Assembly: GCA_964431135.1 (NCBI GenBank)
Contig: CAYSIN010000004.1
Span: 2,445 to 66,444, forward strand
Source: an uncultured Bacteroidales bacterium
GTDB lineage: Bacteria > Bacteroidota > Bacteroidia > Bacteroidales > GWA2-32-17
Direction: 5' to 3'
DNA length: 64,000 nucleotides
Shown: positions 11,601 to 57,683 of the stretch, piece by piece
Numbering within the stretch: position 1 is the first letter of the stretch
Layout of the letters: every line of letters begins with the position of its first letter
Position numbers and translations under genes: made by a program
Notes under the pieces: model-generated
Seen by the model: the letters and a program-made list of their open reading frames with translations, nothing else
Databases searched by the model: none
Told to the model about the DNA's origin: nothing

Positions 11601-14600
11601 TGTTACCTGTAATGGAGGCACCAACGGAACGGCTACCGCCTCTGGAAGTGGTGGAAGTGTACCTTATTCGTACTTATGGAGTGCTTCAGCAGGAAGTCAA
11701 ACGACACCAACGGCTGTCGGCTTGTCCGCAGGTTCTTTTTCTGTTACTGTTACTGATGCCAATGGATGTACTTCTACGGCAAATGTTACCATAACTCAAC
11801 CTACTACGGTAACAGCGAACATTTCAGGTTTTACACCTGCTCTATGTAACGGCGCCTGTAATGGAACTGCTACAGTTGTAGGCGGCGGTGGAACATCACC
11901 CTATACCTATACATGGTCAAATACACAAACAAGTACTACGGCTACCGGTTTATGTGCTAGCACTTATAATGTAACAGTAAAGGATGCAAACAATTGCTCC
12001 GCAATTACTTCCATAACTATTACACAGCCTACGGTGCTAACCGCTTCAGCAAGTTCTACTTCTGCTCATTGTGGTCACAGCGATGGAAGTGCCTCTTCTT
12101 CTGCCACAGGTGGCACATCACCTTACAGTTTTGTATGGAGCAGTGGTCAACTTACACAAAATATTACCGGTATTTTACCGGGTACTTATATCGTAACCGC
12201 AACCGATGCCAACGGTTGTACTGCTGTTGCCAATACTGTAGTAGGGAATTTACCAGGCGGTACAGCCTCTATTGTTACTATAAATTATACTACATGTAAT
12301 GGCTCTTGCGATGGTTCAACTTCCATTTCCATGTCGGGTGGAACCACTCCTTATACATATTTATGGTCCAATGGAGCCAACACACCCTCCATTTCGGGTT
12401 TATGTGAAGCCATATACAGAGTAACGATTACGGATGCATCTGGTTGCACGGTGGTTGATTCTGTTGATATTAAATCTCCCACTCCTATATCATTAACTTT
12501 TGCCGTAAACGATATTCATTGTTTTGGACAATGTAATGGAAAGATTACAGTAACACCGTCTGGTGGAACATCACCCTATACTTATGCGTGGAGTAATACG
12601 TGTGCACTTCCTATAGATTCTAATCTATGCAGTGGGAATTATACGGTTACTGTAACCGACAGCCATGGATGTACCAATACAGGAAGTCGAACTATAAGTA
12701 CTATACCTCCCATGTCATTATCGGCTGTTTCTACCGATGCCAATTGTAATCAATCAAACGGCGCTCTCGATTTAACGGTTACCAATGGTGCAGCACCATT
12801 TACCTATCAATGGTCAAATAGTCAAACAACGGAAGACTTGTCAAACATACCTGCGGGCGTTTATAGTGTTACTGTTGCCGATATAAAAGGATGTACTGTT
12901 ACTGGAACATATACTGTTGCAAATATTAATGGTCCATCATCCAGCATTTCTTCTGTTACCCATGTCAGTTGTAATGGATTTTGCGATGGAATTGCAGTTG
13001 GCCAGGTTACCGGTGGCACTCCACCATTTTTATATTCATGGAGTAATGGTCAGATTGCTCAAACAGCAACGGGATTATGTCCAGGAACATACACGTTTAG
13101 TGTAACCGATGGTGCAGGGTGTGTATCCACCTCTCATGTAACCATAACCCAACCTACTGCGTTAAATATATTAACTATTTCTGGTACCAATCCTTCTTGC
13201 AATGGCGATTGTAATGGTACTGTTTCGGTTAGTGTAGGAGGTGGAACTACCCCTTATACTTATCAATGGACAGGTGGAAGCCCCTTCGGAGGATTAACTC
13301 CGACTGCAGCAACAACTAATGGAATTTGTAATGGTGTACTCACTGTTACTGTTACCGATGCACATGGCTGTACAGTCAATGGTTCAACGGGTGTAGTAGA
13401 GCCTGCTATATTATCCCTTGTTCCCAGTTCAACATCTGAATCATGTTCAGGAGCCAATGATGGAAGTGCCTCTGTTACACCAGCAGGAGGTACAATCCCT
13501 TATACATATCAGTGGTCTGCCAATACAGGTGGGCAGACATCATCTACTGCTCATAATCTGGGTGCAGGAAATTACTCTTGTACGGTTACGGATGCACATG
13601 GATGCACGGTTAACATTCCTGTCGCTGTTACAGGACCCAATCCCTTGGTTTTTTCTAATATAACCAGTACCGATATTCCATGCTATATGGCTAATAATGG
13701 AACTATCTCTGTAAATATCAGTGGTGGTACTCCGCCATATACTTACTATTGGACCAATTCTATTGGTACTTTTTCTTCCTCAAACCAAAATATTGGTAAT
13801 TTACCAGCAGAAACTTATTTCCTAACCGTTACTGATTCGCATGGTTGTTTTATTACTACTACTGTTGTTATTAATCAACCACCTGCATTAACGTTAAATA
13901 CTATTAAAACAGATGAAACATGTTATCAATTTTGTAATGGAACCATTCAGGCAAATGTAAATGGTGGACAAATTCCCTATACCTATTTATGGACGAACAG
14001 TCAAACAACCCCTTCACTTCAAAATCTATGTCCTGGAAATTACGGCATAACTGTTACCGACTATAACGGGTGTACCGTTTCTTCCAACGTTACCATTACA
14101 GGTCCGCCCTTATTACAAATAGATGTAGTCAGTGTTGTCCCTGCAACATGCGGACAATCTAACGGAGAAGCGACTATTAGTTTTCAGGGTGGAACCACAG
14201 GTTATAGCATTCAATGGTCAACAGGTGGAAATACTGTTCATGAAACAGGCATGCCAGCGGGCAATCATACAGTAACTTTAATTGACCAAAATGGCTGCGT
14301 AGCAACTCAACAAGTCGCCATTCAAAATCTGAACGGTCCATCCATAACTTCAATTACAGCAACACCTGTTTCCTGTGCAGGATATGCCGATGGTGTTGCC
14401 ATAGTAAGTTATACACCATCAAGCCCCCCAGCACCGCCTTATATAAGCACATGGAGCAATTCCATGACGGGTGATACCATAACAGGATTAGCCGGTGGAG
14501 TATATTATGTTACAGTACAAGATGCCGTGGGTTGTGTAACTGCTGGAAGTGTTGTAGTTCAAGAACCAACAGCATTTGTCTCTGTCGTATCAAGTACTAC

Positions 14601-45367: not shown

Positions 45368-46939
45368 TTAGGGTCCAAAGAATTTTACGTGAAGGATGAT
45401 TAATCCCAAACGGTAAAGGTTATATGCAGTAAAAGATTTAGATTTACTCTCCTGTCCCACGACACCGAAGTTTGAGCAAGGCAGAACGCTTGAATTACCA
45501 TTGAACCACTTATTGCTATAGACTTTGTTGGCTATAGTACTTGTATTCATAATTAAAAAATCATCATTTTCAAACACTTTATTGAATGATAAAGTCATTT
45601 TATTCAAATCTACATTAGAATGCTTATTGATAACAATAAATTTACATTTACGACTAATGATTTTATTAATGTATGAAGTATCTGATAATTGTTCATCCGT
45701 GCAATTCCAACCTTTTCGATGTGATAAATAAATCATTTGTGGATTACCATTTCCATTAAGTAATATCAAATCATCTCTAGTTGAAACCTTATCCATTATT
45801 TGTTCAATGCTCATTTTATATTTTTCTGATTCTTTTATAAAAAAATCATGTTGTTGATTAGCAATACTTTCTCCAACACCTAAAAATAGAACTGTTAAAA
45901 AAATCCATTGTTTTTTAATTAGAGAAAGAGTGTATCCCGCTATAAGTGCCATAATTGGCACAAATGGAATTATATAATAGTTGTGATGATAAAAATAAAA
46001 TCCTGACTTAAATATATACAATATAAAAATTACAAAAGGCAAAAGAAATGTTATAATCATTTTTCTATCTTTTTTGATGACCATTAGAACAAGACCAATA
46101 ATAAATAATGTAAAAACAATATAACTTGCAAAAGCGTCAAAGTAAAAATTATGTAATGTTTTATCAATATTTTCAATAATTTCAACAAATCCAGTTTTAA
46201 ATGATTTACCTGAATTATACCAGTTACCAAACTCACTTGACAGTTTGAAATTCCATTTAAAGTACCACAAATATGATAGGACTAAAGACGGGATAGTAGA
46301 TACTGCTAAAATAACTTTTTCTTTTAATGCAATTCTATTGTTTAGCAAATATAGTACAGGAAATACAAGGTAAATACATGCTGGTATTTTTGACAAAACG
46401 GCTAAGGATCCAAAAATCATATATAGAAAAATTTGATATGTCTTTTTCTCTTCTAAATATCTTAATCCATAATAAAGTCCAATAAACATAATTGAAATAC
46501 AATATGTATCAGGCATCATTTTTCTTGAAAATGAAAACCAAATGGATGTCGTTAAAAAAATAGTAGAAATAAAGGCAATACGTTCTTTGAAATTTGCCAA
46601 GCAAATCAATTTGTAAAAGAAAAATAACCCAAGAGAAGAAATTATAAGATTAATAAGTCTGCCATACCAATGAGTGTATCCAAATATTTTTGCCAACATA
46701 AAATAAATATAATTCATTGAAGGGAATTCCATTCCTATGATACCTGTATTTCCATTATTATCATCTATTCTTGGATATAAAATATTTGCATCTACTTCAA
46801 GAAAATTTCTTGCTACCATTAATCCTGTTACTTGTCGCCAATTATGACCTATTTCTAAAGGTGGATTTGTAATACCAATTAGTCTAATGAAAAAGAAAAT
46901 AAAAATCCAAAATTCAATTCTCTGATAAAACTTTTTCAT
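45368..46939 (-). CDS. GT39/GT83 (ArnT/PMT-like) membrane glycosyltransferase family protein
   Basis: The protein is 523 aa and multi-pass. The N-terminal pattern (NPPL..GHNWRQ..GLMVARNF...EFP..NY) is typical of the family. The gene is visibly AT-richer than its core neighbours. Confidence 0.6.
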   Translation of the reverse strand: MKKFYQRIEFWIFIFFFIRLIGITNPPLEIGHNWRQVTGLMVARNFLEVDANILYPRIDDNNGNTGIIGMEFPSMNYIYFMLAKIFGYTHWYGRLINLIISSLGLFFFYKLICLANFKERIAFISTIFLTTSIWFSFSRKMMPDTYCISIMFIGLYYGLRYLEEKKTYQIFLYMIFGSLAVLSKIPACIYLVFPVLYLLNNRIALKEKVILAVSTIPSLVLSYLWYFKWNFKLSSEFGNWYNSGKSFKTGFVEIIENIDKTLHNFYFDAFASYIVFTLFIIGLVLMVIKKDRKMIITFLLPFVIFILYIFKSGFYFYHHNYYIIPFVPIMALIAGYTLSLIKKQWIFLTVLFLGVGESIANQQHDFFIKESEKYKMSIEQIMDKVSTRDDLILLNGNGNPQMIYLSHRKGWNCTDEQLSDTSYINKIISRKCKFIVINKHSNVDLNKMTLSFNKVFENDDFLIMNTSTIANKVYSNKWFNGNSSVLPCSNFGVVGQESKSKSFTAYNLYRLGLIILHVKFFGP

Positions 46940-46955
46940 ATCATATCTTGTGTCT

Positions 46956-47055
46956 TTATGGTCTTGTCGATATTTCGATTTTCTGTCCTTTCACAATAGT
47001 TTACTCTCTATTTTGGTTCTGTTGTCTGTCTTTTTACACTTGGCGGTAACGGTTG
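46956..47055 (-). repeat. Conserved ~100-nt 3' element, copy B1
   Basis: It is about 85% identical to the reverse complement of 57583-57683, judged by eye alignment. It lies between the T9SS-cargo gene stop (47181) and the GT39-like gene start (46939). Confidence 0.8.
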
Positions 47056-47180
47056 AATGCAAAATTTGGCGAGCATTTTTCCTTGCAGTTCTTTGTCAAA
47101 CCGCTACGAACTATATTCCTTGCAGTCTTTGTCATAATGTGCCCGAGCCCGCTAAATATTTGCACGTTGTTACTATCAGT

Positions 47181-48116
47181 TTATTTTACTAGAATTTTAC
47201 CGGTAAATAATTTGCTTGTATTAAATAACTTATAAAAATAAACTCCTTTATTCAAATTCGAACCGAATAAAATAAACTTATTTGTTCTAATGTTGTCTTT
47301 TTCTAAAATTAGATTCCCAAGATTATCAAAAAGTTCAATTTTAAAGCATTCACTATATGGATTATGAAAAGTAAAATTAAAATAATCTCGTCCGGGGTTA
47401 GGATAAATATTAACCGGAGAATTGATTATTTTATCATTTACATTTCCTGTAACTTGATACCCGTTAAATAATATATGGTCAATTAGCCAACCTTCTTTAT
47501 TATTGTTGATAGAATCACTTTTAAAATAGAATCTAACAATTAATGAATCTTGTGGCCAATCTTTAGTAAGACCATTCCAAAACCAATAAATTTGAGAAAA
47601 AGTCCACTCATTATTGTAGCCGCTGAAAGCTGGAATATTTCCTTTTATTGTATCCGTTGAGGAATAAAAATTTGTTGGTATTGTCCAAATTGCGATAGAA
47701 TCATTTATTACGTTCTTCCAAATATTCCCTCCATCATATGAAACTGTAATATAACCTCCATCTAATAAAGAATCGGTATCATATTTATGCCAAAATCCCA
47801 ATATTCCTTCACCCCAGCCAAACCATCCGTATTGAGTGTCTTTGATAATAAGGTCAAAGTATGAATAATTATTGTTTGGATAATATCCAGTGTCAGTAAA
47901 TATTGCATTAGGATGAGAATAGGAGCTGTTGAAAAAGGTTTTTGAAGGAATTCCAACTTTCCAAATACTACCACTTTGAGATGTGTCAATACGTAGATTA
48001 GTACTATGGGGAGACTCAAAAGAAACTGTATCTGTAAATACTAATGGTCCCCATTGTCCATTTGCTATTGAACTTGTAAGAATTAGACCTAAAAGAAGTA
48101 AAACGTTATTTTTCAT
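47181..48116 (-). CDS. Secreted protein with a T9SS type A C-terminal sorting domain
   Basis: It has a signal peptide and a C-terminal Por_Secre_tail pattern (NIYPNPGRDYFNFTF ... KGVYFYKL ... GKILVK). The N-terminal domain is unrecognised. Confidence 0.8.
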   Translation of the reverse strand: MKNNVLLLLGLILTSSIANGQWGPLVFTDTVSFESPHSTNLRIDTSQSGSIWKVGIPSKTFFNSSYSHPNAIFTDTGYYPNNNYSYFDLIIKDTQYGWFGWGEGILGFWHKYDTDSLLDGGYITVSYDGGNIWKNVINDSIAIWTIPTNFYSSTDTIKGNIPAFSGYNNEWTFSQIYWFWNGLTKDWPQDSLIVRFYFKSDSINNNKEGWLIDHILFNGYQVTGNVNDKIINSPVNIYPNPGRDYFNFTFHNPYSECFKIELFDNLGNLILEKDNIRTNKFILFGSNLNKGVYFYKLFNTSKLFTGKILVK

Positions 48117-48136
48117 ACTATTTTTTGTTTAATAAA

Positions 48137-48294
48137 TTGCTGGTAACATCTATGTAAACTTACAATTACGTTTATATCTTCATTATCCATAGTGGAGTTG
48201 TTTTGATAAAATGCTGTTATGTGAGCAATATTGAATATGTGTCTTAAATAGTTCATTTTGTAACTCCTTATATAAATATACATGCACAAATATA
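48137..48294 (-). ncRNA. Conserved promoter plus ~150-nt 5' leader, copy A1 (candidate cis-regulatory RNA or uORF leader)
   Basis: It starts with a TATATTTG -7 box. It is about 91% identical to 56690-56847 in the opposite orientation. It lies directly upstream of the gene starting at 48116. Confidence 0.55.
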
Positions 48295-48404
48295 TATAAA
48301 AAATAATTCAAAACAAAACTATTTTGGGTTAAAAATTATTTTGAGGTGCTATTATTTTTTTTAAGACCTTTGTGTAAATTCAATTCATTTACATAGTCAT
48401 CCCT

Positions 48405-48491
48405 TAAAAAGTACATATTCTACCTCGTCCTCGTTTGCAACGAGGACGCACATTTTCATTCTTTTGTCAGCGGTTTGGTATAAGATTCCAA
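48405..48491 (+). repeat. Intergenic repeat copy: box 2 (AGTCATCCCTTAAAAA), hairpin CGTCCTCGTT-TGC-AACGAGGACG, and inverted box 1 (TTTTGTCAGCGGTTTGGTAT)
   Basis: The layout matches the 28.8, 38.8 and 56.6 kb copies. The stem sequence differs, but base pairing is preserved. Confidence 0.65.
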
Positions 48492-48498
48492 AAATTTA

Positions 48499-49347
48499 TT
48501 ACTGTAAACTGAACTTGTATGTAATGCTACCGCGCTGTATTTCAGGAGCATCCAATTTACGGTCAAATCTGGTTTTCATAGCGGCATCATACGCAACATC
48601 CAAATATTCTTTGGATAACAAAGTGGAACCTTTTACGCCGGGATTGGCTTTTACAACCACTCCGTTTTGGTCCACAAATATTTCAACTACGACTTTCCCT
48701 TGCAAGTTGCCCGGATAACTGGGTTTTGGAAAATGCTTTACCTGACGGTCTCCCAAACTGTATTGATTGCCATTCCCCGGTCCATTGCCTGTACCTGTTC
48801 CAGTGCCTCCATTACCCGGTGTATTTCCTGTACCGGGATTGCCGTAATGATTTTTGGCATTGGGGTCGCCAAATGGATTTCCCTGATCGCCGGGTTTTCC
48901 TGTTTCCCCTTCGCTTCCACCTTGACTCCCTTTGTACAAGGCATTGGGATTGACAACCGGTTCGCTCAATTGAATAATCTGATTATTTTTTTCAGCCGTC
49001 CATTTGCTTGTATCTTTATTATGATTACTTTTTACAGACTCAGCATCTTCGTAATTTTGTGTCAATACAGTGTTATTATTATTTTTCTGTATTTTATTGA
49101 CTTGTTCCAGTTGCTGCTTTTCGTTATTGGGAGTAGGATTGGGATTATAATAGTTTGGTTGAATATCGCCTGTGCCTTCCTGTGAAAAACCGAGATTAAC
49201 TTCCATACCTTGTCCGCCACCTTCAGGATAAGGAGGAATAGGTGTACGCAAAATGATAAGTAAAAACAATAATATCAGTATTGCATGAGTAAGAAGCGAA
49301 AGTAAGGCAGGAAGCCAGACGCTGGTATGTTCATTATTACTAACCAT
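48499..49347 (-). CDS. tonB: Energy transducer TonB family protein
   Basis: It has an N-terminal TM anchor, a G/N/P-rich linker and a C-terminal TonB domain (GKVVVEIFVDQNGVVVKA...). It lies downstream of exbB and exbD. Confidence 0.8.
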   Translation of the reverse strand: MVSNNEHTSVWLPALLSLLTHAILILLFLLIILRTPIPPYPEGGGQGMEVNLGFSQEGTGDIQPNYYNPNPTPNNEKQQLEQVNKIQKNNNNTVLTQNYEDAESVKSNHNKDTSKWTAEKNNQIIQLSEPVVNPNALYKGSQGGSEGETGKPGDQGNPFGDPNAKNHYGNPGTGNTPGNGGTGTGTGNGPGNGNQYSLGDRQVKHFPKPSYPGNLQGKVVVEIFVDQNGVVVKANPGVKGSTLLSKEYLDVAYDAAMKTRFDRKLDAPEIQRGSITYKFSLQ

Positions 49348-49350
49348 GAA

Positions 49351-49755
49351 CTAATTATTGACATGTTTGGTTGCCAATACCATTTTTATTTGCATCTTTG
49401 TTCCGATTTGCAAAACATCTACTAAATCCTGAACCGACAAACTGCTATCGAAACGCAAAATAATAGTAGGGCTTGGAATATTTGCTATTGCTTTTTTGAT
49501 TTCTGCTTCCAAATTTTCTAAGGGCACCTGTACATTGTTCAGATAATAGTTTTTATTTTTATCTACCGATAGTGTAACTTGCATTTTGCTTACGGTTGTA
49601 GAGGCGCTGGCTTTTGGGAGCAATAATTTTATTACCGATGGATTTACTAGCGTAGATACAATTAAAAAGAACAGCAGAAGAAAAAACATAATATCATTCA
49701 GCGAACTGGTATAAACTTCTACCTGAAATGATGAACGTCTGTCTTTTAAATTCAT
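49351..49755 (-). CDS. exbD: Biopolymer transport protein ExbD/TolR
   Basis: The protein is 134 aa with an N-terminal TM segment (LNDIMFFLLLFFLIV) and a periplasmic domain. Confidence 0.88.
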   Translation of the reverse strand: MNLKDRRSSFQVEVYTSSLNDIMFFLLLFFLIVSTLVNPSVIKLLLPKASASTTVSKMQVTLSVDKNKNYYLNNVQVPLENLEAEIKKAIANIPSPTIILRFDSSLSVQDLVDVLQIGTKMQIKMVLATKHVNN

Positions 49756-49757
49756 AG

Positions 49758-50495
49758 TTATGCTTCTTTTTGAATGGTTTCAAGAAATTCCATAGCGTTA
49801 GTTTCCATGGTGATGGTAACTTTATCAATCAGCATATTGATATAATGATAGCCAATGTATGCTAACACGCCAATAGTAAGCCCGGAAGCACTGGTAATCA
49901 TTTTTTCATACAGCCCGCTTGAAATTAGTCCTATGCTGATATTATCTGCCAAAGAAATATTATAAAATATTTTGATTACCCCCATAATGGTTCCGATAAA
50001 GCCGAGCATGGGAGCAATGCTGGCAATAATTCCCAATATTCTCAAATTTCGGTCGAGTTTTGACAATTCCGTTTTTCCCACCGATTCCATGCTTTTTTCA
50101 ATTTCAGATACGGGCTTTCCTATTTTGCTCAGCCCTTTTTCAATCATTTTGGATGAAGGAGTATTGATAGATTCACAATACGTTTTGGCATTATCAAACT
50201 TCATTTCTACCGTATATTCTTTTATACGCTGCATAAAATCCTTGTCTTTTTTTCTGACTTTTAACACGGCTATCAGCCTGTCAATAAAAACATATACACC
50301 AATAAGTGATAAAAGAACAATAGGAATCATAATCCAACCGCCCTTTACTAACAAGTCGAAAAGAGATAACGAATCGACATTGAGCGAAGGTGCTGGTGCT
50401 GGAGTTGTTGTTGGAATTTGCGATACGGCATTGGCTACCGAATCTTGTACCGCACCCGGCGTTGTAATAATTTGTAATAATGTCATACCTTTCAA
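49758..50495 (-). CDS. exbB: MotA/TolQ/ExbB proton channel family protein
   Basis: It has three TM segments and a conserved C-terminal channel region (IASIAPMLGFIGTIMGVIKIF). Confidence 0.88.
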   Translation of the reverse strand: MKGMTLLQIITTPGAVQDSVANAVSQIPTTTPAPAPSLNVDSLSLFDLLVKGGWIMIPIVLLSLIGVYVFIDRLIAVLKVRKKDKDFMQRIKEYTVEMKFDNAKTYCESINTPSSKMIEKGLSKIGKPVSEIEKSMESVGKTELSKLDRNLRILGIIASIAPMLGFIGTIMGVIKIFYNISLADNISIGLISSGLYEKMITSASGLTIGVLAYIGYHYINMLIDKVTITMETNAMEFLETIQKEA

Positions 50496-50602
50496 AATTT
50501 AATTAAATAAACGCACTAAGATACATATCAAGAATTAACGTAAATTTATTGAAAAATATTATTTATTAACATTTAATTGTTAACGAAGAAAGTAAACCTG
50601 CC

Positions 50603-51640
50603 TTATGCTTTTTTCATTTCGTCTATTTGCTTTCTTAGTTCTTGCAATTGTTCGATAATTTCTGGCAAATGTTTAAAATGAATATACGATTTTTGATAAT
50701 TTTTCAAATTAAAAGCGGGTGAGCCTTGAATAGTTTCTCCCACTTGGGTTATACTTGTTCCAATGCCCGATTGTGCAGCAATTTTTACTTCTTCCGCAAT
50801 AGTCAAATGTCCAGCAATACCTACCTGACCGCCTATCATACAATTTTTCCCTAATTTGGTAGAACCTGAAATACCTGTTTGAGCTGCTATTACTGTGTTT
50901 TCATCTATTTCAACATTATGGGCAATTTGAATAAGATTATCTATTTTTACCCCTTTATGAATAAGCGTGCTCCCCATGGTGGCTCTATCTATGCATGTAT
51001 TGGCACCTATTTCTACATCCTCTTCTATAACCACGTTGCCTATTTGGGGTATTTTTTTGTACGATTGAGCATCGGCAGCAAAACCAAAACCATCGGCACC
51101 TATTACCGTATTGGAATGAATAATACAACGATTTCCAACAACGCAATCTTTATAAATTCTAACACCAGAATAAATAATAGTATCTTCGCCTATGGTTACA
51201 TTTTCACCTAAAAAAACATTGGGATAAATTTTGGTGTTACTTCCAATTTTTACATTTTTGGAAATATAGGCAAAGGCTCCGACATAGACACTTCTACCAA
51301 ACGAAACATTGTTATTAATATAATTTGGATATTCTATGCCAGCAGGATGATGATTTTCTTCCTTATTGCACAATTCCAATAATTGAGCAAACGATTTATA
51401 GGCGTTTTCTACTTTTATAAGTGTGGCATCAATAGGTTTAGAAGTTTGAAAATCTTTATTTACCAATACTATGCTTGACTGGGTGGTATAAATATATTTT
51501 TCGTACAGCAAGTTTGCCATAAATGAAATACATCCCGGTTTCCCATCTTCTATTTTGGCTACTCCGTTCACTTCTATTTTTTCATTGCCAATAACTTCAC
51601 CATGGAAGAGTTCTGCTATTTCCTTTGCGGTCAATTTCAT
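50603..51640 (-). CDS. lpxD: UDP-3-O-acylglucosamine N-acyltransferase
   Basis: The protein is 345 aa with left-handed beta-helix hexapeptide repeats. LpxD N- and C-terminal patterns are present ([11 protein letters not shown]..., [10 protein letters not shown]). Confidence 0.92.
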
Positions 51641-51688
51641 AGATTTTTTTTACAAAAATACAACATAAATTTGAATCATCAAACCATT

Positions 51689-52924
51689 TTATGAACGTAT
51701 GGCTTCCTGCATAAAACAGATAAAATACTTTATTACGTTTTTAGATATAACTTCCGTATTTAAAATATCCGACGCTTCAGAAATATCAAGTATGCGACCA
51801 TCTTTATACAAAATATTTATTTTATCGTCGGTAATGCTGTATGCATGATTTTCGGCTGAGTCGGAAAAAACCAAAAATGATGCATCAAAGGCAGAAAGGT
51901 GAAATTTTTTCATGGTTTTGTTTCGATAATCTTCCAACTTGCTGGTTGGAATAGGTGTCCGTTGCATTTCTATTTTGAACAATTTGCGTTGAATAAAATT
52001 TTGCGATAAAAAGGATAAAATAAAATCGGTATGTTGTGCCCATTGCTTTATCCATACCCATATTTCCGAATCGTCGAGTTGTGAAAATAATTGAATGAGT
52101 TCTATATTTTCGTTCAACTCTTTTGCCGAAATTGGATTGTTCCAAAATCTGTTCAACGTATCGGGAAGAATAAGTTGTTTATTTTTATATAAAAAGTGTA
52201 CTCGTTTAAATATAGAAATCAGCATTTGTTCCGCTGCCAATACGGTTTTATGAAGATATACCTGCCAATACATCAGCCTGCGGGCTATTAAGAATTTTTC
52301 AATAGAATATATTCCTTTTTCTTCAACGGCAAGACTGTCTTTGGCGATTGTTAGCATTTTTATAATACGTTCGGTACCGATAACACCTTCGGAAACGCCC
52401 GTAAAAAAACTGTCTCGCTTTAAATAATCCAATCTGTCCATATCTAATTGGCTTGATATGAGTTGATGTAAAAAATGTTTGGAATAACGATTATTCATAA
52501 TGTCTATGGCTAAACGAAGTTCGCCATCGAACAAATTATTAAAATGGTGCATATAGGCAAGTGTTATTTGCTCATGACTAATGTGTGGCAAAATAATCTT
52601 TTCCAAGGTATGCGAAAAGGGACCATGACCTATATCGTGTAGCAGTACTGCTAAACTAACGGCTTCCGATTCAATAGGGGTGATTTCATTTTTCTTTGTG
52701 ATAAGAACATCTATGGCTTGCTGTGCCAGATAATAAGCACCAAGTGAATGTTGAAACCGAGTATGTACCGCCCCCGGATATATAAAATATGCTACCCCCA
52801 ATTGTTTTATGTTTCGCAATCGTTGAAACCACGGATGTTCTACTATCTGCAACCCAAGTCCTAATGGCAATTGAATAAATCCCAACACCGGGTCATTCAC
52901 TATTTTTATTTTTTTCTCCATCAT
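51689..52924 (-). CDS. HD-domain phosphohydrolase (dNTP triphosphohydrolase/SAMHD1-like)
   Basis: HD motifs are present (HTRFQHSLG, LLHDIGHGPFSH, DMDRLDYLKRD). Confidence 0.85.
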   Translation of the reverse strand: MMEKKIKIVNDPVLGFIQLPLGLGLQIVEHPWFQRLRNIKQLGVAYFIYPGAVHTRFQHSLGAYYLAQQAIDVLITKKNEITPIESEAVSLAVLLHDIGHGPFSHTLEKIILPHISHEQITLAYMHHFNNLFDGELRLAIDIMNNRYSKHFLHQLISSQLDMDRLDYLKRDSFFTGVSEGVIGTERIIKMLTIAKDSLAVEEKGIYSIEKFLIARRLMYWQVYLHKTVLAAEQMLISIFKRVHFLYKNKQLILPDTLNRFWNNPISAKELNENIELIQLFSQLDDSEIWVWIKQWAQHTDFILSFLSQNFIQRKLFKIEMQRTPIPTSKLEDYRNKTMKKFHLSAFDASFLVFSDSAENHAYSITDDKINILYKDGRILDISEASDILNTEVISKNVIKYFICFMQEAIRS

Positions 52925-53051
52925 TTTTTATGAAAATTTTATACAAAGGTTATAGTTTTTATTCAAATAATAATCAATTGTTGAAACAAAAAAAAGAATA
53001 ACACCGTATAATCCAACAAGAAAAATGCTTAACTCTTAAAAAATAAAAATT

Positions 53052-53258
53052 ATGATGTTAGATTTTTCCAAAATGATTTTAAGTAAAGTAAGTTTCGACC
53101 CACTGCTCTTCCATAAGGAACTGAGAAAACTAATTTTATGGATTGGCGACGACCTTGACGAAATTAACTGCCTGCATGAATGGTGTGAAGAAAATTATGG
53201 CGAACTTTATGGCGAAATTATTGCAGAGGAGTTTAAAGATTATGGTCGTTACGACTAA
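53052..53258 (+). CDS. Small hypothetical protein (68 aa)
   Basis: The ORF is followed by a strong terminator. I recognised no family. Confidence 0.45.
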   Translation: MMLDFSKMILSKVSFDPLLFHKELRKLILWIGDDLDEINCLHEWCEENYGELYGEIIAEEFKDYGRYD

Positions 53259-53304
53259 CAACAGTTATAGCATGGGTTGATTTACCTACTTTAAAAAACT
53301 TGGC

Positions 53305-53336
53305 AAAGGGCACAATCAAATTGTGCCCTTTTTTTT
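53305..53336 (+). terminator. Rho-independent terminator
   Basis: The hairpin AAAGGGCACAAT-CAA-ATTGTGCCCTTT runs into a T-run. Confidence 0.8.
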
Positions 53337-53391
53337 GCCACAAAAAAGAGATACCCACTCATAATAAACAGCCACTATAATTTATTTTTTG

Positions 53392-53399
53392 TAATTTTG
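53392..53399 (+). promoter_or_regulatory. Candidate -7 promoter box (TAATTTTG) for hutU
   Basis: It matches TAnnTTTG 16 nt upstream of the ATG at 53415. Confidence 0.35.
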
Positions 53400-53414
53400 C
53401 TTCAAAAAAAAGTT

Positions 53415-55427
53415 ATGACTACCAAAGAAGAATTTCAGCGTTTGATAATTCAGGGCATACCCGACGAATTGCCCAATCCAAAACCTTATGATACAACAGT
53501 CAATCATGCTCCCAAAAGAAAAGATGTTCTTTCCAAAGAAGAAAAAAAACTGGCATTAAAAAATGCGTTGCGTTATTTTCCACCTAAACATCACGCTGTG
53601 CTGGCACCCGAATTTTTGAATGAATTGAATACTTACGGAAGAATATACATGTATCGTTTTCGTCCCGATTACGAAATATATGCACGCCCCATAGATGAAT
53701 ATCCGTGCCATTCCAAGCAGGCTGCATCTATTATGTTGATGATACAAAACAATTTGAACAAGGCTGTAGCCCAGCATCCTCACGAATTGATTATATACGG
53801 TGGCAATGGCTCCATATTTCAGAATTGGGCACAATACTTGCTTACCATGAAATATTTAAGTGAAGTTACCGACGAGCAAACACTGGTCATGTATTCCGGT
53901 CATCCACTGGGCATATTTCCATCCAAAAAAGACGCCCCCCGCATGGTTGTTACCAATGGCATGGTTATTCCAAATTATTCATCCAAAGACCTATATGAAA
54001 AATTTAATGCCATGGGTGTATCTCAATATGGGCAAATGACGGCTGGTTCGTATATGTATATTGGTCCACAGGGTATTGTTCACGGCACTACTATAACTAT
54101 ACTGAATGCCGGTAGAATTATCAATCCTTCGAGTCAAGACCTTCGTGGAAAATTATTTGTATCGAGTGGATTGGGTGGCATGTCGGGAGCACAAGCCAAA
54201 GCAGCAGTGATTGCCGGAGCAGTGGGCGTTATTGCCGAAATAAACCCCAAGGCTATCCATACACGTCATTCGCAAGGCTGGGTAGAAGAAGTGATAGATA
54301 ACCTTGATGAATTGATGAGTCGCATTCGTCAGGCAAAAAAAGAACAAAAACCTGTATCTATAGCCTATCAGGGTAATATTGTTGACTTGTGGGAACGATT
54401 AGCAAAAGAAGATATTCCCGTTGAACTTGGCAGCGACCAGACTTCATTGCACAATCCGTTTGCCGGTGGCTATTATCCCGTTGGAATATCGTTTGATGAA
54501 GCCAATGTGATGATGGCAAAAGAACCCGACCGCTTTAAGGAAATGGTTTATGCATCGTTGCGACGTCAAATTGGTGCTATAAATACTTTATGTCAGCGTG
54601 GCATGTATTTCTTTGATTACGGAAATGCCTTTTTACTCGAATCAAGCCGTGCCAAAGCCGATGTATTGAAGCCCGATGGCTCGTTTAAATATCCATCGTA
54701 TGTGCAGGACATTATGGGCCCCTTGTATTTTGATTATGGCTTTGGTCCTTTTCGCTGGGTTTGTACGTCGTGCAACCCCGATGATTTGGACATTACAGAC
54801 CGCATAGCCTGTGAGGTGCTTCAAAAAATTATAACACACGCTCCTGACGAAATAAAACAGCAATTGCTGGACAATTTGAAATGGATACAGGATGCCAAAA
54901 AGAATAAACTGGTAGTAGGCAGTCAGGCGCGTATTCTTTATGCCGATGCCGAAGGTCGCAGGGAAATAGCCCTTGCCTTTAACGAAGCCATTCGCAAAGG
55001 GAAACTATCTGCTCCGGTGGTGTTAGGTCGCGACCATCACGATGTGTCGGGTACTGATTCTCCTTTTCGTGAAACGTCCAATATTTACGACGGTTCGCAA
55101 TTTACTGCCGATATGGCGGTGCAAAATGTTATCGGCGATGCGTTTCGCGGTGCAACTTGGGTTTCACTTCACAACGGCGGCGGCGTAGGATGGGGCGAAG
55201 TTATCAACGGTGGATTTGGTATGGTGATTGATGGCTCTGCCGAATCTGAAAATAAGATTAATTCCATGCTTCCATGGGATGTAAACAATGGACTTACGCG
55301 ACGCAGTTGGGCTCGTAACAAAGGTGCCATTTTCTCAATAAACAGGGCTATGGAAAAAGAACCACGGTTAAAAGTTACGTTACCCTATTTTGCCGATGAT
55401 TCGTTAATTAATAACGTCTTATCGTGA
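53415..55427 (+). CDS. hutU: Urocanate hydratase
   Basis: The protein is ~670 aa with urocanase patterns throughout (GGNGSIFQNWAQY, GGMSGAQAKAAVIAG, GRDHHDVSGTDSPFRETSN). Confidence 0.95.
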   Translation: MTTKEEFQRLIIQGIPDELPNPKPYDTTVNHAPKRKDVLSKEEKKLALKNALRYFPPKHHAVLAPEFLNELNTYGRIYMYRFRPDYEIYARPIDEYPCHSKQAASIMLMIQNNLNKAVAQHPHELIIYGGNGSIFQNWAQYLLTMKYLSEVTDEQTLVMYSGHPLGIFPSKKDAPRMVVTNGMVIPNYSSKDLYEKFNAMGVSQYGQMTAGSYMYIGPQGIVHGTTITILNAGRIINPSSQDLRGKLFVSSGLGGMSGAQAKAAVIAGAVGVIAEINPKAIHTRHSQGWVEEVIDNLDELMSRIRQAKKEQKPVSIAYQGNIVDLWERLAKEDIPVELGSDQTSLHNPFAGGYYPVGISFDEANVMMAKEPDRFKEMVYASLRRQIGAINTLCQRGMYFFDYGNAFLLESSRAKADVLKPDGSFKYPSYVQDIMGPLYFDYGFGPFRWVCTSCNPDDLDITDRIACEVLQKIITHAPDEIKQQLLDNLKWIQDAKKNKLVVGSQARILYADAEGRREIALAFNEAIRKGKLSAPVVLGRDHHDVSGTDSPFRETSNIYDGSQFTADMAVQNVIGDAFRGATWVSLHNGGGVGWGEVINGGFGMVIDGSAESENKINSMLPWDVNNGLTRRSWARNKGAIFSINRAMEKEPRLKVTLPYFADDSLINNVLS

Positions 55428-56431
55428 TAAAGCGTTGTTTTCTTTTTTTTATTGTCATTACTTTTATTACGTCTGCTTGCCAAAGAACACGCCCGGTATT
55501 TGTTTCTATAACAGGATATACACAGGGAGGCAGTTTTCATATTAAATACCAGCCCAATACCGATTCTGTTTCATCCGAAGAAATATATCAACTGCTGAAC
55601 GATATTTCGCATTCGCTTTCTATTTATGATACAAACTCTATTATCTGTCATATCAACCGAAACGATACGCTTGTAAAGTTAGACCGTTATTTTTGTGAAA
55701 TTTTTCAGAAAGCCTATCATATATATCAGCAAACAGACGGATTATTTGATATAACCGTGGCACCGCTTGTTAAGCATTGGGGCTTTATACCCAAAGACAG
55801 CATTGTTGACCAATACAAGCCCACAGACAGTTTGCTTGACCTAATCGGTATGAACAAAATTCGTATGGAAAATAACCGGTTAATAAAGAAAAATAAAAAT
55901 ATGCAGATAGATGTCAATGCTATTGCACAGGGTTATACGGTGGACAAACTTGCCCTGCTTTTGGAATCAAAAGGAATAAAAAATTATATGATAGAAGTTG
56001 GTGGCGAAGTTCGCGTTAATGGCGTAAATGATAAAGGTGAGCCATGGAACGTAGGCATAGACAAACCCATAGAACAGAGCGACGAAACAAACCGAGAATT
56101 GCAAACCATCGTGAGCATTACCAATACATCGCTGGCTACCAGCGGCAATTATCGCAAGTTTATTGAAATAAATGGCGTTAAATATTCACATATTATCAAT
56201 CCAAAAACAGGAATGCCTGTACACCAGCGATTGTTGAGCGTTACCGTTGTAATGCCCTCTTGTACGGATGCCGATGCGCTGGCTACGGCTATTATGGTGA
56301 TGGGGCTTGAAAAAGGAAAATCGTTTGTATTGCAGCATTCGTCGCTGGATGCGTATTTTATTTATTCGGACGAAAAAGGCAACCTGCAAACATGGATGAC
56401 CAAAGGATTAGAAAAAAATTGCACTGAATAA
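55424..56431 (+). CDS. apbE: FAD:protein FMN transferase (ApbE family lipoprotein)
   Basis: It has a lipobox (ITSAC) and ApbE motifs (FDITVAPLV, NAIAQGYTVD, TSGNYRKF, HIINPKTG, DADALATA). Its GTG start overlaps the hutU stop (GTGA). Confidence 0.9.
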   Translation: MIKRCFLFFIVITFITSACQRTRPVFVSITGYTQGGSFHIKYQPNTDSVSSEEIYQLLNDISHSLSIYDTNSIICHINRNDTLVKLDRYFCEIFQKAYHIYQQTDGLFDITVAPLVKHWGFIPKDSIVDQYKPTDSLLDLIGMNKIRMENNRLIKKNKNMQIDVNAIAQGYTVDKLALLLESKGIKNYMIEVGGEVRVNGVNDKGEPWNVGIDKPIEQSDETNRELQTIVSITNTSLATSGNYRKFIEINGVKYSHIINPKTGMPVHQRLLSVTVVMPSCTDADALATAIMVMGLEKGKSFVLQHSSLDAYFIYSDEKGNLQTWMTKGLEKNCTE

Positions 56432-56516
56432 AAGATGTACAACTTTTTTACGCTATAAAACGGATGTTCACACTAATAGAATATTGATAAAACGCCGAAA
56501 GTGATTGATAATGTTC

Positions 56517-56624
56517 ATACCGACTTGCTAACAAGATAATTAAAACCATTCGCTTCGCTTTTTTTAGTCTGTCGGCATTAACCAAAACACGCAAATCCAG
56601 ACCATCTCGTCAATTATGACGAGA
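56517..56624 (+). repeat. Intergenic repeat copy: box 1 (ATACCGACTTGCTAACAA), a box 2-like AGTCTGTC segment, and hairpin TCTCGTCA-ATTA-TGACGAGA
   Basis: It belongs to the same family as 38776-38852. An inverted half-box (CGGTTTGGT) follows at about 56633-56641. Confidence 0.65.
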
Positions 56625-56689
56625 CGGGATTATCGGTTTGGTTTGAAAACTTTTTTAAAATAAAATTTGGTGGAATGAAAAAAAAGTTA

Positions 56690-56847
56690 TATCTTTGTGC
56701 GTGTAAAATTATATACGGAGTTACAAAATGAACTATTTAATACACACATTCAATATTGCTCACATGAACAGCATTTTATAAAAACAATCGACTATGGATA
56801 ATGAAGATATAAACGTAATCGTAAGTTTACACAGATGTTACCTGCAA
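56690..56847 (+). ncRNA. Conserved promoter plus ~150-nt 5' leader, copy A2 (candidate cis-regulatory RNA or uORF leader)
   Basis: It starts with a TATCTTTG -7 box and has TTTG about 26 nt upstream. It is about 91% identical to the reverse complement of 48137-48294. It lies upstream of the gene starting at 56894. Confidence 0.55.
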
Positions 56848-56893
56848 GGTTGAAAAAACGATTTAAACTACGAAACATTAAATAAATATTTAA

Positions 56894-57454
56894 ATGAAAT
56901 TTGGAAATATATTAGTTATTGTACTTATATTTTTGACAAGTTGTGCTACACAAAGAACAAGTACTATTGTAGGATGTGATTATGATAAAAATAAAAACCA
57001 AACGGATTATTTTGTTTTTCCATATGGTTCTGTTTCTATTCCAGGAGAATGGAAAAAAACATCATATAATCAAATAGCCAAACAACAATTCTTTAAAAAT
57101 TCAGATAGTATAACAATAGCAATTGCATTTGGACCTTGTGATAAATACGAGTTTAATGCAACTAATCCCAAGAAAGGTTTTGAATTTGTTAAAGCATTCT
57201 ATGAATGGGACTCTGAATTTTTTGTAAAAAATTATCGTTTGACTCAAGAATTAGTTGAATCTAACGAAAATGATAATTTTATAATATGGAGAGCATTTGG
57301 AGAAAATAATAATACATATTGGGACACGTATTTTCTGTTTGGAGAAAAAAATGGTTTTGCAAATAATTTTTCTGTTATGACAACTGACAAATGGACAAAA
57401 GAAGATAAAGTGACCTTTTTAAAAAAAATATACTTACAGGAGAAAACAGAATAA
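56894..57454 (+). CDS. Hypothetical lipoprotein (186 aa)
   Basis: It has a signal peptide plus lipobox (LTSC). The gene is very AT-rich, and I recognised no family. Confidence 0.7.
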   Translation: MKFGNILVIVLIFLTSCATQRTSTIVGCDYDKNKNQTDYFVFPYGSVSIPGEWKKTSYNQIAKQQFFKNSDSITIAIAFGPCDKYEFNATNPKKGFEFVKAFYEWDSEFFVKNYRLTQELVESNENDNFIIWRAFGENNNTYWDTYFLFGEKNGFANNFSVMTTDKWTKEDKVTFLKKIYLQEKTE

Positions 57455-57582
57455 CAACCCAGCAGGTAACATGCGGTCATACGCAATGCGGGGTGCTGTG
57501 CCTGTTTTTATATCAGCTCATTTATTAACCATTGCAGTAACTCGACAAGTGAGCGACCTGAATCCCGCACTGCGCATACCGC

Positions 57583-57683
57583 CAGCCGTTACCGCCAAGT
57601 GTAAAAACCAATACGACAGGACTAAAATAGAAAGTAATCCATTGTGAAAGGACAGAAAAAAAGAAATATTGACAAGACCATAA
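57583..57683 (+). repeat. Conserved ~100-nt 3' element, copy B2
   Basis: It is about 85% identical to the reverse complement of 46956-47055. It lies between convergent genes ending at 57454 and 57763. Confidence 0.8.

Follow-up and report, generated by a model that had tools for sequence, protein, structure and literature searches.

Chromosomal integrons comprise an integrase gene (intI), an attI site, a Pc promoter and gene cassettes with attC sites; in the type found in Treponema and Chlorobi, the integrase gene is co-directional with the cassettes. The attI1 site of class 1 integrons also contains ORF-11, a short open reading frame (ORF) that enhances translation of the first cassette. Here, we analyze a stretch of 64,000 nucleotides (64 kb; referred to as the window) of contig CAYSIN010000004.1 from an uncultured Bacteroidales bacterium (assembly GCA_964431135.1, positions 2,445 to 66,444), in which two unrelated genes for secreted proteins are preceded by the same promoter-like element and leader. 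The leader and its genes very probably form an integron-like platform, with a promoter and an attI-type site, and the cassettes captured there. The two copies are designated W1 (platform copy 1, minus strand) and W2 (platform copy 2, plus strand).

The IntegronFinder 2.0 paper records one complete integron in Bacteroidetes, in Salinibacter (PMC9024848), and a 2024 preprint places Bacteroidota among the clades 'previously found without any integrons'. The integron literature that we searched regards this phylum as all but free of integrons and contains no description of the Bacteroidota arrays reported here, which is not proof that none exists. Our comparisons use the criteria of integrons sensu Mazel 2006 and the IntegronFinder definition, in whose terms CALIN and SALIN are, respectively, clusters of attC sites and single attC sites without an integron integrase (PMC9024848). 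Integron papers take the IntI-specific domain of the integrase as defining (PMC9668308), and this insertion is incompletely conserved within the integron-like subgroup of Smyshlyaev et al. (PMC8138268).

The first-pass annotation of the window reported a repeat of ~158 nt at ~91% identity between 48137-48294 and 56690-56847, and gapped blastn of the two arms bears this out (161 columns, 91.3% identity, E about 1e-58), with no copies in the window beyond these two. A repeat search of the window returns them as inverted arms of 160 nt at 48137-48296 (minus) and 56688-56847 (plus), 85% complementary when ungapped, and a MAFFT alignment of the two copies places a +1 indel (G in CATGAAC) followed 22 nt on by a -1 indel. 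The downstream genes are unrelated, as had been noted: one codes for a 311-aa protein with a Por_Secre_tail match, the other for a 186-aa protein that has no Pfam match and a lipoprotein-like N terminus. Similarity had been said to stop at GATGTTACC(A/T)GCAA, and it does fade there in the alignment, but the true boundary lies 10 nt earlier, at the crossover point described below; it persists for those 10 nt because both cassettes have similar R' cores. The first reading overlooked a second shared segment, 3' of both genes, at 46956-47055 and 57583-57683 (101 nt, 85%). Each gene is bracketed by a common 5' block and a common 3' block (the tail), and ~130 nt of variable imperfect palindrome separate its stop codon from the latter. 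Between the two modules lie 8.4 kb of unremarkable core genome, coding for a TonB-like ORF, ExbD, ExbB, LpxD, an HD protein, urocanase and ApbE.

Relatives of the leader define where its fixed part ends. One metagenome scan with a leader pattern gave 19 loci, 13 of them true homologues, and one more (L023) was added later; scans of viral contigs with the leader pattern and with a tail pattern returned no matches, and a scan of genome contigs with the leader peptide gave no confirmed locus. Among representative genomes it is seldom present, or else it goes unassembled. There are two subtypes, W1 grouping with L004, L006, L008, L011-L016, L018, L019 and L023, and W2 (type 2) with L010 and L022. 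In the W1-subtype loci the upstream sequence is identical wherever it is present (170 nt or more, unless a contig end cuts the locus short), and the loci then diverge abruptly at one nucleotide, after ...CACAGATG↓ or ...GTAAGTTTACACAGATG, the crossover being ...AGATG↓TTA (arrows mark the crossover point throughout). The sequences that open after the junction are GTTGTAG, GTTAGCG, GTTAGCA, GTTACCT, GTTATGG, GTTGGCA and others, with cassette starts listed as TTGTAGGC, TTAGCGTTC, TTAGCAGTT, TTAGCGGGC, TTAGCGGTA, TTATGGGC, TTACCTGC, TTAGCAGCA and TTGGCAC; they fit the G↓TTRRRY crossover pattern of integrons. At least 10 different cassettes are joined to this same leader nucleotide in loci where a recombinase gene is adjacent, and those of L010, L022, W1 and W2 come in addition. 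The relatives have what characterizes attI, a G↓TT crossover beside an integrase gene and a variable first cassette, whereas the window has the site twice and no such gene.

From 48340 onward, the leader next to the recombinase gene in L004, L012, L016 and L019 is 84.5% identical to W1. Over about 200 nt, W2 shares 93.5% identity with L010 and 89.8% with L022, and these two relatives occupy other chromosomal contexts, the L010 platform following a primase-like ORF and that of L022 lying beside a divergent aminoacyl-tRNA-synthetase-like ORF; neither has an adjacent recombinase gene as far as its sequence extends. The 5' boundary of the type-2 platforms (W2, L010 and L022) showed no consistent G↓TT and no target duplication. 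Short-read contigs of the same organism (L001, 8107 nt; L003, 1156 nt; digester sample, Logan SRR8476420) end inside the leader and tail repeats, and platforms and cassettes would therefore be systematically fragmented in, or lost from, metagenome-assembled genomes (MAGs). The orphan platform of L010 (1709-2806, Ga0302253) is followed by a small protein that is LytTR-like by eye and by two peptides of ~71 aa with a double-glycine (LVTGG), bacteriocin-like leader.

A tyrosine recombinase gene lies directly 5' of the leader in the relatives, on the same strand, and ends about 180 nt ahead of the junction. It codes for 544 aa in the L004 group (L004 1928-3562) and 367 aa in L008 (205-1308), and the two proteins are 48% identical overall, although their last ~45 residues and the leader that follows are identical, which suggests that the platform and the recombinase C terminus are exchanged as a unit. 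An N-terminal repeat domain of ~55 aa is present three times in the 544-aa protein and once in the 367-aa protein, as judged by eye. The profile NF040815 ('tyrosine recombinase/integron integrase') matches at 241 bits (cutoff 220), and TIGR02249 gives 230 and 211 bits, below its cutoff of 265, with two separate matching segments that leave out the middle of the model. Compared with VchIntIA (2a3v), 17 residues replace chain residues 184-242 (59 residues), the region of the IntI-specific insertion, and the domain around patch III that distinguishes integron integrases is lacking. The closest solved relatives are archaeal XerA proteins (PDB 4a8e, E 6e-42, and 5hxy).

The palindromes between the genes and the tails belong to a family of attC-like sites of 130 to 141 nt, the outer boxes being R'' (..AAC) and R' (G↓TT..). 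Sixteen sites were aligned (alignment A3) and a hand-drawn structure was tested against column shuffles and against slid partner columns: pairing holds in 86% of cells. The corresponding figures are 63% for the shuffles, none of the 500 attaining 86%, and 33-44% for the slid columns. Compensatory double changes occur in 16 of the 17 L-stem pairs, and AAC and GTT are invariant. This is the organization of attC, an imperfect hairpin with R'', L'', L' and R' boxes and a variable center, within roughly 57-141 nt. In integrons, the choice of strand is directed by extrahelical bases of the folded bottom strand. No conserved bulges were seen in the 16 sites, which instead have two conserved 1x1 A.C mismatches, an asymmetry of another kind; one top-strand A.C mismatch (a G.T wobble on the bottom strand) is present in 15 of the 16 and a second such 1x1 mismatch in 9. 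This asymmetry is expected if one DNA strand folds and recombines, and the bottom strand folds more stably in 13 of the 16 sites; for the W2 hairpin, the energies are -23.8 kcal/mol (bottom strand) and -20.2 kcal/mol (top strand). Like that of canonical integrons, this attC would recombine as a folded bottom strand. Single-sequence DNA folding of the window attC regions gives modest z scores (-0.3 to -1.2), and the support for these sites is therefore covariation, not single-sequence energy.

The attC-like sites were located with R1, a covariance model built from A3 whose seed includes the sites of both window modules (57462-57596 and 47042-47177); it replaced a rigid geometric attC finder that failed to separate signal from shuffles in the window. 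R1 also matches attC sites outside its training set: in the window, a third one at 45403-45535 (E 2e-8); in L028, one that scores 85 bits. The site at 47042-47177 and the third site are 1.5 kb apart and form a CALIN (at least two attC sites within about 4 kb, no integrase). Both the attC and the CALIN calls rest on R1, this study's own model, not on the canonical attC model; Rfam contains no attC family.

Cassettes are reused and reshuffled among loci. L011 contains more than 10 kb of co-oriented ORF groups parted by imperfect hairpins of ~135 nt, which begin with ..nnCTAAC and end with CCG↓TTAGCnn; a five-gene cassette that opens the arrays of L016 and L018 occupies second place in L011, and L011, L012 and L013 have further cassettes in common. 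The cassettes also carry the signature of a circular form, in that the R'' end of the hairpin is complementary to the first bases of its own cassette: a start TTGTGGCTA goes with R'' TAGCCACAAC, a start TTATGCCTT with R'' AAGGCATAAC, and three successive cassettes in L015 obey the same rule. Among 75 cassettes bounded by two R1 matches, for which the first 7 nt were compared, the reverse complement of the R'' extension agrees with the cassette's own start at a mean of 5.39/7 positions (at least 6 in 52 of the 75) but with the resident downstream sequence at only 3.27/7 (at least 6 in 5 of 75). The W2 attC R'' GCAGGTAAC is the exact complement of its own cassette start GTTACCTGC (9/9).

Clustered at 90% identity, the 186-aa protein is one of 49, which come from Bacteroidales and Paludibacteraceae MAGs. 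The cassette with its gene follows the attC of an alpha/beta-hydrolase cassette in L109, L110, L114 and L115, the attC of a 279-aa cassette in L113, and a third attC in L111 and L112, and counting the window platform, it has four different left neighbors, always joined at G↓TTACCTGC. Homology of the L109-L115 cassettes to the window begins at G56837 in every case, and judging from these junctions, the 186-aa gene is a mobile cassette. A gene more than 90% identical to it also occurs in L116-L123, where it is flanked by folB and a convergent M23 peptidase gene and has a TAnnTTTG box of its own but no attC (for example, L116 5850-6700; Bacteroidales MAG GCA_012519885.1); this copy could be either a fixed, domesticated cassette or the chromosomal source of the cassette.

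The tails are the counterpart of the leader on the right-hand side. The W2 tail and ~80 nt after it align with the post-crossover sequence beside the recombinase gene in L024 (GCA_013314715.1), with a score of 94 against a shuffle maximum of 45 (z 12.8), and the W1 tail aligns with the same post-attI region at z 6.7; this homology identifies the tail as the resident right half of the attI-type site. Opposite-strand ORFs over the tails (80 and 71 aa, with GTG or TTG starts) were considered as genes and rejected, being translations of conserved DNA. In L024 (11250-11530), L034, L039 and L049, a recurrent noncoding unit of roughly 300-450 nt comes first after the crossover and has the motifs GCCAACCC, CACATTTGGTTTTGCC and AAAAGAGC; its 5' part is similar to the window tails, and it could be a noncoding RNA or a regulatory unit. 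The first cassettes of L024 (11533-21064; HTH, ResIII helicase, N6_N4 methyltransferase, AAA_23, SLFN/AlbA_2) and L028 (11302-15504; Eco57I-like, AAA_15, with an attC at 13492-13627) likely code for phage defense.

The arrangement that we propose has the leader as a fixed platform, with a promoter that faces outward, a short ORF within the leader, and an attI-type site of which it forms the left half. A tyrosine recombinase, encoded just upstream of the same leader in related organisms but not in the window, would insert circular gene cassettes at the G↓TT that ends the leader, each cassette consisting of a 5' untranslated region, one or more ORFs and an attC-like hairpin of ~135 nt. Both window genes would be such cassettes, and the tail that resumes at the attC G↓TT would be the original right-hand side of the site. 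W1 would then hold the type IX secretion system (T9SS)-protein cassette and a second unit made of the tail, a glycosyltransferase gene and a degenerate attC, and W2 the lipoprotein cassette. Two unrelated secreted-protein genes would share a promoter and leader because both were captured at copies of the same platform, and the promoter would transcribe whichever cassette is first, as Pc does in integrons. The two window platforms would be served in trans, now or once, by a recombinase encoded elsewhere, or else be relics. Of this, the data show the fixed junction positions, the covarying attC structure, the circular-cassette signature, the recurrence of cassettes in other arrays, and the polarity of the arrays with their linkage to a recombinase gene; the roles of the promoter, the folded strand, the leader ORF and a recombinase acting in trans are inferred. 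Coordinates are given in Table 1.

Table 1. Coordinates of platforms, cassettes, attC-like sites and tails in the window (R1 scores are from the covariance model built in this study)
Feature	Position	Strand	Remarks
Platform copy 1 (W1): promoter-like element, leader, left half of attI-type site	48137..48340	-	91.3% identical to copy 2 over 48137-48296
Platform copy 1, fixed end	G48147	-	48146-48137 (TTACCAGCAA) already cassette
Promoter match, copy 1, Bacteroidetes type: -33 TTTG, -7 TAtaTTTG	48287..48317	-	Pattern match; putative function
Leader ORF, copy 1, 47 codons, MNYLRHIF...MDNEDINVIVSLHRC↓YQQFIKQKIV	48113..48256	-	Spans the crossover; stop overlaps cassette ATG (ATGA)
Cassette A	47050..48146	-	From T48146 (after G48147↓TT) to G47050; bounds are the leader junction and the attC crossover
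Gene for 311-aa T9SS-sorted protein of cassette A	47181-48116	-	Por_Secre_tail match
attC-like hairpin of cassette A; R'' GATAGTAAC, R' G↓TTACCG	47042..47177	-	R1 63.6 bits, E 2e-11; in seed alignment
Tail copy 1	46956..47049	-	Starts exactly at G↓TT of attC; 85% identical to tail copy 2
Gene for 523-aa PMT_2-family glycosyltransferase	45368..46939	-	PF13231 match; between tail and third attC-like site
Third, degenerate attC-like site	45403..45535	-	R1 49.1 bits, E 2e-8; outside training set; crossover G45411↓T45410
Platform copy 2 (W2), type 2	56645..56837	+	Fixed part ends at G56837; crossover G56837↓T56838
Promoter-like match, copy 2: -33 TTTG, -7 TAtcTTTG	56666..56697	+	Pattern match
Leader ORF, copy 2, interrupted	56728..56853	+	MNYLIHTFNIAHMNSIL (56728-56781), then MDNEDINVIVSLHRC↓YLQG (56794-56853)
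Cassette with 186-aa lipoprotein-like gene (56894-57454)	56838..57588	+	Same cassette joined at G↓TTACCTGCAAGG to three other attC sites
attC-like hairpin of copy 2	57462..57596	+	R1 96.9 bits; in seed alignment; crossover G57588↓T57589
Tail copy 2, resident right flank of attI-type site	57589..57683	+	101-nt, 85% repeat with tail copy 1

The second unit of the W1 array (unit B) probably includes the glycosyltransferase gene, which begins 17 nt beyond the tail. The third attC-like site overlaps the 3' end of this ORF, and its central part resembles, by eye, the attC L012_5658, which suggests that a housekeeping-looking glycosyltransferase is, or was, a member of the cassette array.

Arrays of this type extend well beyond the sub-clade of the window. 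The recombinase family has at least 7996 proteins at E below 1e-30, with top matches in Tenuifilum, Tenuifilaceae and Bacteroidales, and some relatives bear the PGAP label 'site-specific tyrosine recombinase/integron integrase'. A genome scan yielded 403 recombinase relatives, of which the best 80 loci (1.13 Mb) were analyzed with an R1 threshold of E ≤0.01. They include Flavobacterium psychrophilum DSM 3660, F. saccharophilum, F. denitrificans, F. flavipigmentatum and other cultured Flavobacterium, as well as Bacteroidales, Ignavibacteria, Cyclobacteriaceae, Sphingobacteriales and Vicingaceae. R1 finds 133 sites in these loci, all on the strand of the recombinase gene, with 132 downstream of it (358 kb) and one upstream (687 kb). 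At least one site is present in 47 of the 53 loci with 1 kb or more of downstream sequence. Another 24 of the 80 end within 600 nt of the recombinase gene, many at a contig end, as expected if a variable array breaks the assembly. The recombinases of the 80 relatives have no obvious insertion relative to the leader-adjacent recombinase, judged only by the tblastn match length relative to the query residues covered.

The attI regions of L029-L051 share an architecture, within the first ~150 nt after the recombinase stop codon, of a TAnnTTTG box, two palindromic units and TATAAAC(G/A)AG↓TT. Examples of the palindromes are GTATGAT-N4-5-ATCATAC and, in Flavobacterium, GTCTGAC..GTCAGAC, and because their arms covary between taxa, they are probably recombinase-binding sites. 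Searching the 80 genome loci together with L024, L026 and L028 by blastn, we found no window-type leader and no extended tail homology; the matches are only 27-61 nt, and those to the tail lie at or beside attC sites (the one in L028 is weak, 27 nt at E 0.004). The leader sequence is therefore confined to a sub-clade, whereas the architecture is general. Tentatively, Bacteroidota and Ignavibacteriota may harbor a widespread and unrecognized integron class with a Xer-like integrase lacking the IntI domain, an attC of ~136 nt with G.T/A.C asymmetry, and dispersed solo platforms, two of them in the window, that capture cassettes in trans; its hosts would be cultured Flavobacterium species, Bacteroidales, Cyclobacteriaceae and Sphingobacteriales.

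The likeness to integrons is extensive. A tyrosine recombinase gene lies beside a fixed site with a G↓TT crossover; the cassettes are co-oriented and mostly promoterless, and each ends in an imperfect hairpin with ..AAC/GTT.. triplets and an unpaired spacer that parts the R and L boxes; R'' is complementary to the cassette's own start and cassettes are reshuffled between arrays; and array content varies in the population and breaks short-read assemblies, with a putative promoter upstream of the site that faces the array. The differences are in the recombinase, which has no IntI-specific domain and has one to three N-terminal repeat domains; in the hairpins, with two 1x1 A.C mismatches, no obvious extrahelical bases and a 2-nt/5-nt asymmetric spacer; in the putative promoter, which is of the Bacteroidetes -33/-7 type and follows the integrase stop codon; and in the platforms of the window, L010 and L022, which are at several chromosomal sites without an adjacent recombinase. 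Functionally the system is an integron, but by its integrase it is a variant and not a member of the class. The window resembles CALIN/SALIN in having two plus one attC-like sites with cassettes and no integrase nearby, although CALIN are defined without attI, and here each group opens with an attI/promoter platform that is integrase-proximal in relatives. The Xer/dif modules (pdif of Acinetobacter plasmids; archaeal XerA) share with it a recombinase closest to XerA, XerC and XerD without the IntI insertion, but those modules have 28-bp double-stranded dif-like sites and alternate in orientation, unlike the platforms here, with ~135-nt hairpins, a variable center, G↓TT and polar arrays beside the recombinase gene.

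Several observations weigh against the platform interpretation or limit its reach. There is no recombinase gene in the 64-kb window (tblastn E above 2), and the two sites may be inactive relics; platforms without a recombinase occur at several chromosomal sites, and the model does not explain how they spread. The recombinase of the relatives lacks the IntI-specific domain on which canonical integrases depend for attC recognition, and the mechanism may differ. The R'' of the W1 attC matches its own cassette start at 7/9 positions, barely above the 6/9 for the resident sequence, and the R'' of the third attC matches the tail start at only 4/9, so that unit B is uncertain as a cassette. The promoter is a consensus match only, and its pattern (TTTG-N15-23-TAnnTTTG) is not enriched in the window, with 10 matches against 8.5 expected. 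Finally, there are just five leader variants (W1, W2, L004, L010 and L022), gathered with a pattern inside the leader ORF, which biases the conservation seen there.

What the leader does besides carrying the recombination site bears on two alternative readings. The promoter-like element and ~150 nt of transcribed-looking leader common to two unrelated genes, as described in the first-pass annotation, are supported; the promoter pattern is matched in each copy, and its -7 box is kept in four of the five leader variants with the 'nn' positions free. The leader had been proposed as a riboswitch-like or upstream ORF (uORF)-based element. That it is a riboswitch-like, cis-regulatory RNA controlling functionally linked secreted-protein genes is extremely unlikely. 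The conserved and probably transcribed ~150 nt from promoter-like box to start codon would suit this role, as would one compensatory G-C to A-T change between the window copies; yet the leader RNAs fold less stably than dinucleotide shuffles (minimum free energy z +1.56 and +0.76), an Rfam gathering scan of the whole window returns no matches, and the GTGTAAA/TTTACAC helix, intact in W2 and L010, is mismatched in W1, L004 and L022, so that the stable, covarying structure expected of a structured cis-regulatory RNA is not seen. The same leader moreover precedes at least 14 unrelated cassettes, its conservation ends at the crossover rather than at the start codon, and it abuts a recombinase gene in relatives. 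The uORF part of the proposal fares somewhat better, as a secondary feature that may matter. The MNYL ORF had been taken as broken by the indel, but in W1 it continues in frame through MDNED... as a single 47-codon ORF (48256-48113); the break is real in W2 alone, and there it is a TAA (a TCA-to-TAA change relative to L010). Three substitutions had been counted in the mini-ORF shared by the copies, of which the third (Q/L) falls past the crossover, in cassette DNA, while the stop-start overlap in W1 (ATGA, 48116-48113) was correctly described. The ORF, of 38-47 codons, is open in four of the five variants (W1, the L004 type, L010 and L022), two lineages have frame-restoring indel pairs (+1/-1 and -4/+1), and where the junction is of the GTTAG type, the stop codon comes from the crossover core (AGA TG↓T TAG). 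In these respects the leader ORF resembles ORF-11, as it starts in the platform, reaches or crosses the crossover and ends near or over the first-cassette start; it differs in length (38-47 codons rather than 11), in its absence from most attI regions of the wider family, and in being broken in W2. It is possible, though doubtful, that it aids translation of the first cassette as ORF-11 does, and this role is rated low because the stretch bounded by the indels keeps its DNA while the encoded peptide changes completely, because the ORF is broken in W2 and because it is absent from the wider family. A still stronger version, in which the leader acts mainly through its ORF, whether translated into a small protein or serving as a uORF to couple or attenuate first-cassette translation, with any DNA-site function secondary, is unlikely: the changed peptide indicates no amino acid selection in that stretch, the attI regions of L024, L028 and L029-L051 have no comparable ORF, and the ORF as a protein query finds only two clusters among 5.8 billion.

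Other readings concern how the sequences around the genes came to be alike. The copies could be the ends of a composite transposon or an invertible segment, or a recent segmental duplication, with long inverted repeats around 8.4-10.7 kb, and two nested inverted-repeat pairs (I1 and I2/I4) do bracket 46956-57683, while short-read assemblies (L001, L003) break at the repeats. This is barely credible given that the enclosed genes are core housekeeping genes (ExbB/D, LpxD, HutU and ApbE) with no transposase and that the variable parts lie between each module's own repeats, bounded by G↓TT and attC; the copies are, moreover, only 85-91% identical and of different subtypes, each with closer relatives at other loci in other metagenomes, in agreement with the earlier view that this is no trivial recent duplication. 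A different route would be the exchange of cassettes by homologous recombination between leader and tail flanks, without site specificity; conserved flanks of 100-200 nt would permit allelic replacement after transformation, and the window codes for no recombinase. Yet every junction falls on one nucleotide (G↓TT), the complementarity of R'' to its own cassette start points to a circular intermediate, the hairpins covary with a strand asymmetry, and polar arrays adjoin a recombinase gene, so that homologous exchange is quite improbable as the sole mechanism, though it may contribute in addition to site-specific capture at the platform.

A few further features of the window were noted. At 48400-48460 (minus strand), a GC-rich hairpin (GTGCGTCCTCGTTGCAAACGAGGACGAG) separates the TonB-like ORF from platform copy 1, and a short hairpin resembling it (TCGTCAATTATGACGA) precedes platform copy 2; both probably act as terminators, shielding the platforms from transcription that starts upstream. 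A 107-nt direct repeat (11428-11534 and 11665-11771; 71% identity, 237 nt apart) is unrelated to the platforms, and a tRNA scan of the window found none.

The analysis points to a widespread, apparently unreported integron-like class in Bacteroidota, with a recombinase not accepted by integron profiles, and to solo attI platforms. If the interpretation is correct, capture of gene cassettes would be far commoner than thought, and the extra domain of IntI would not be strictly needed for cassette recombination at hairpin sites. Integron architecture would gain a new variation in the solo attI platforms, giving one genome several expression-ready insertion points, and a main origin of strain-level variation among Bacteroidota of the environment and of digesters may lie in these arrays.

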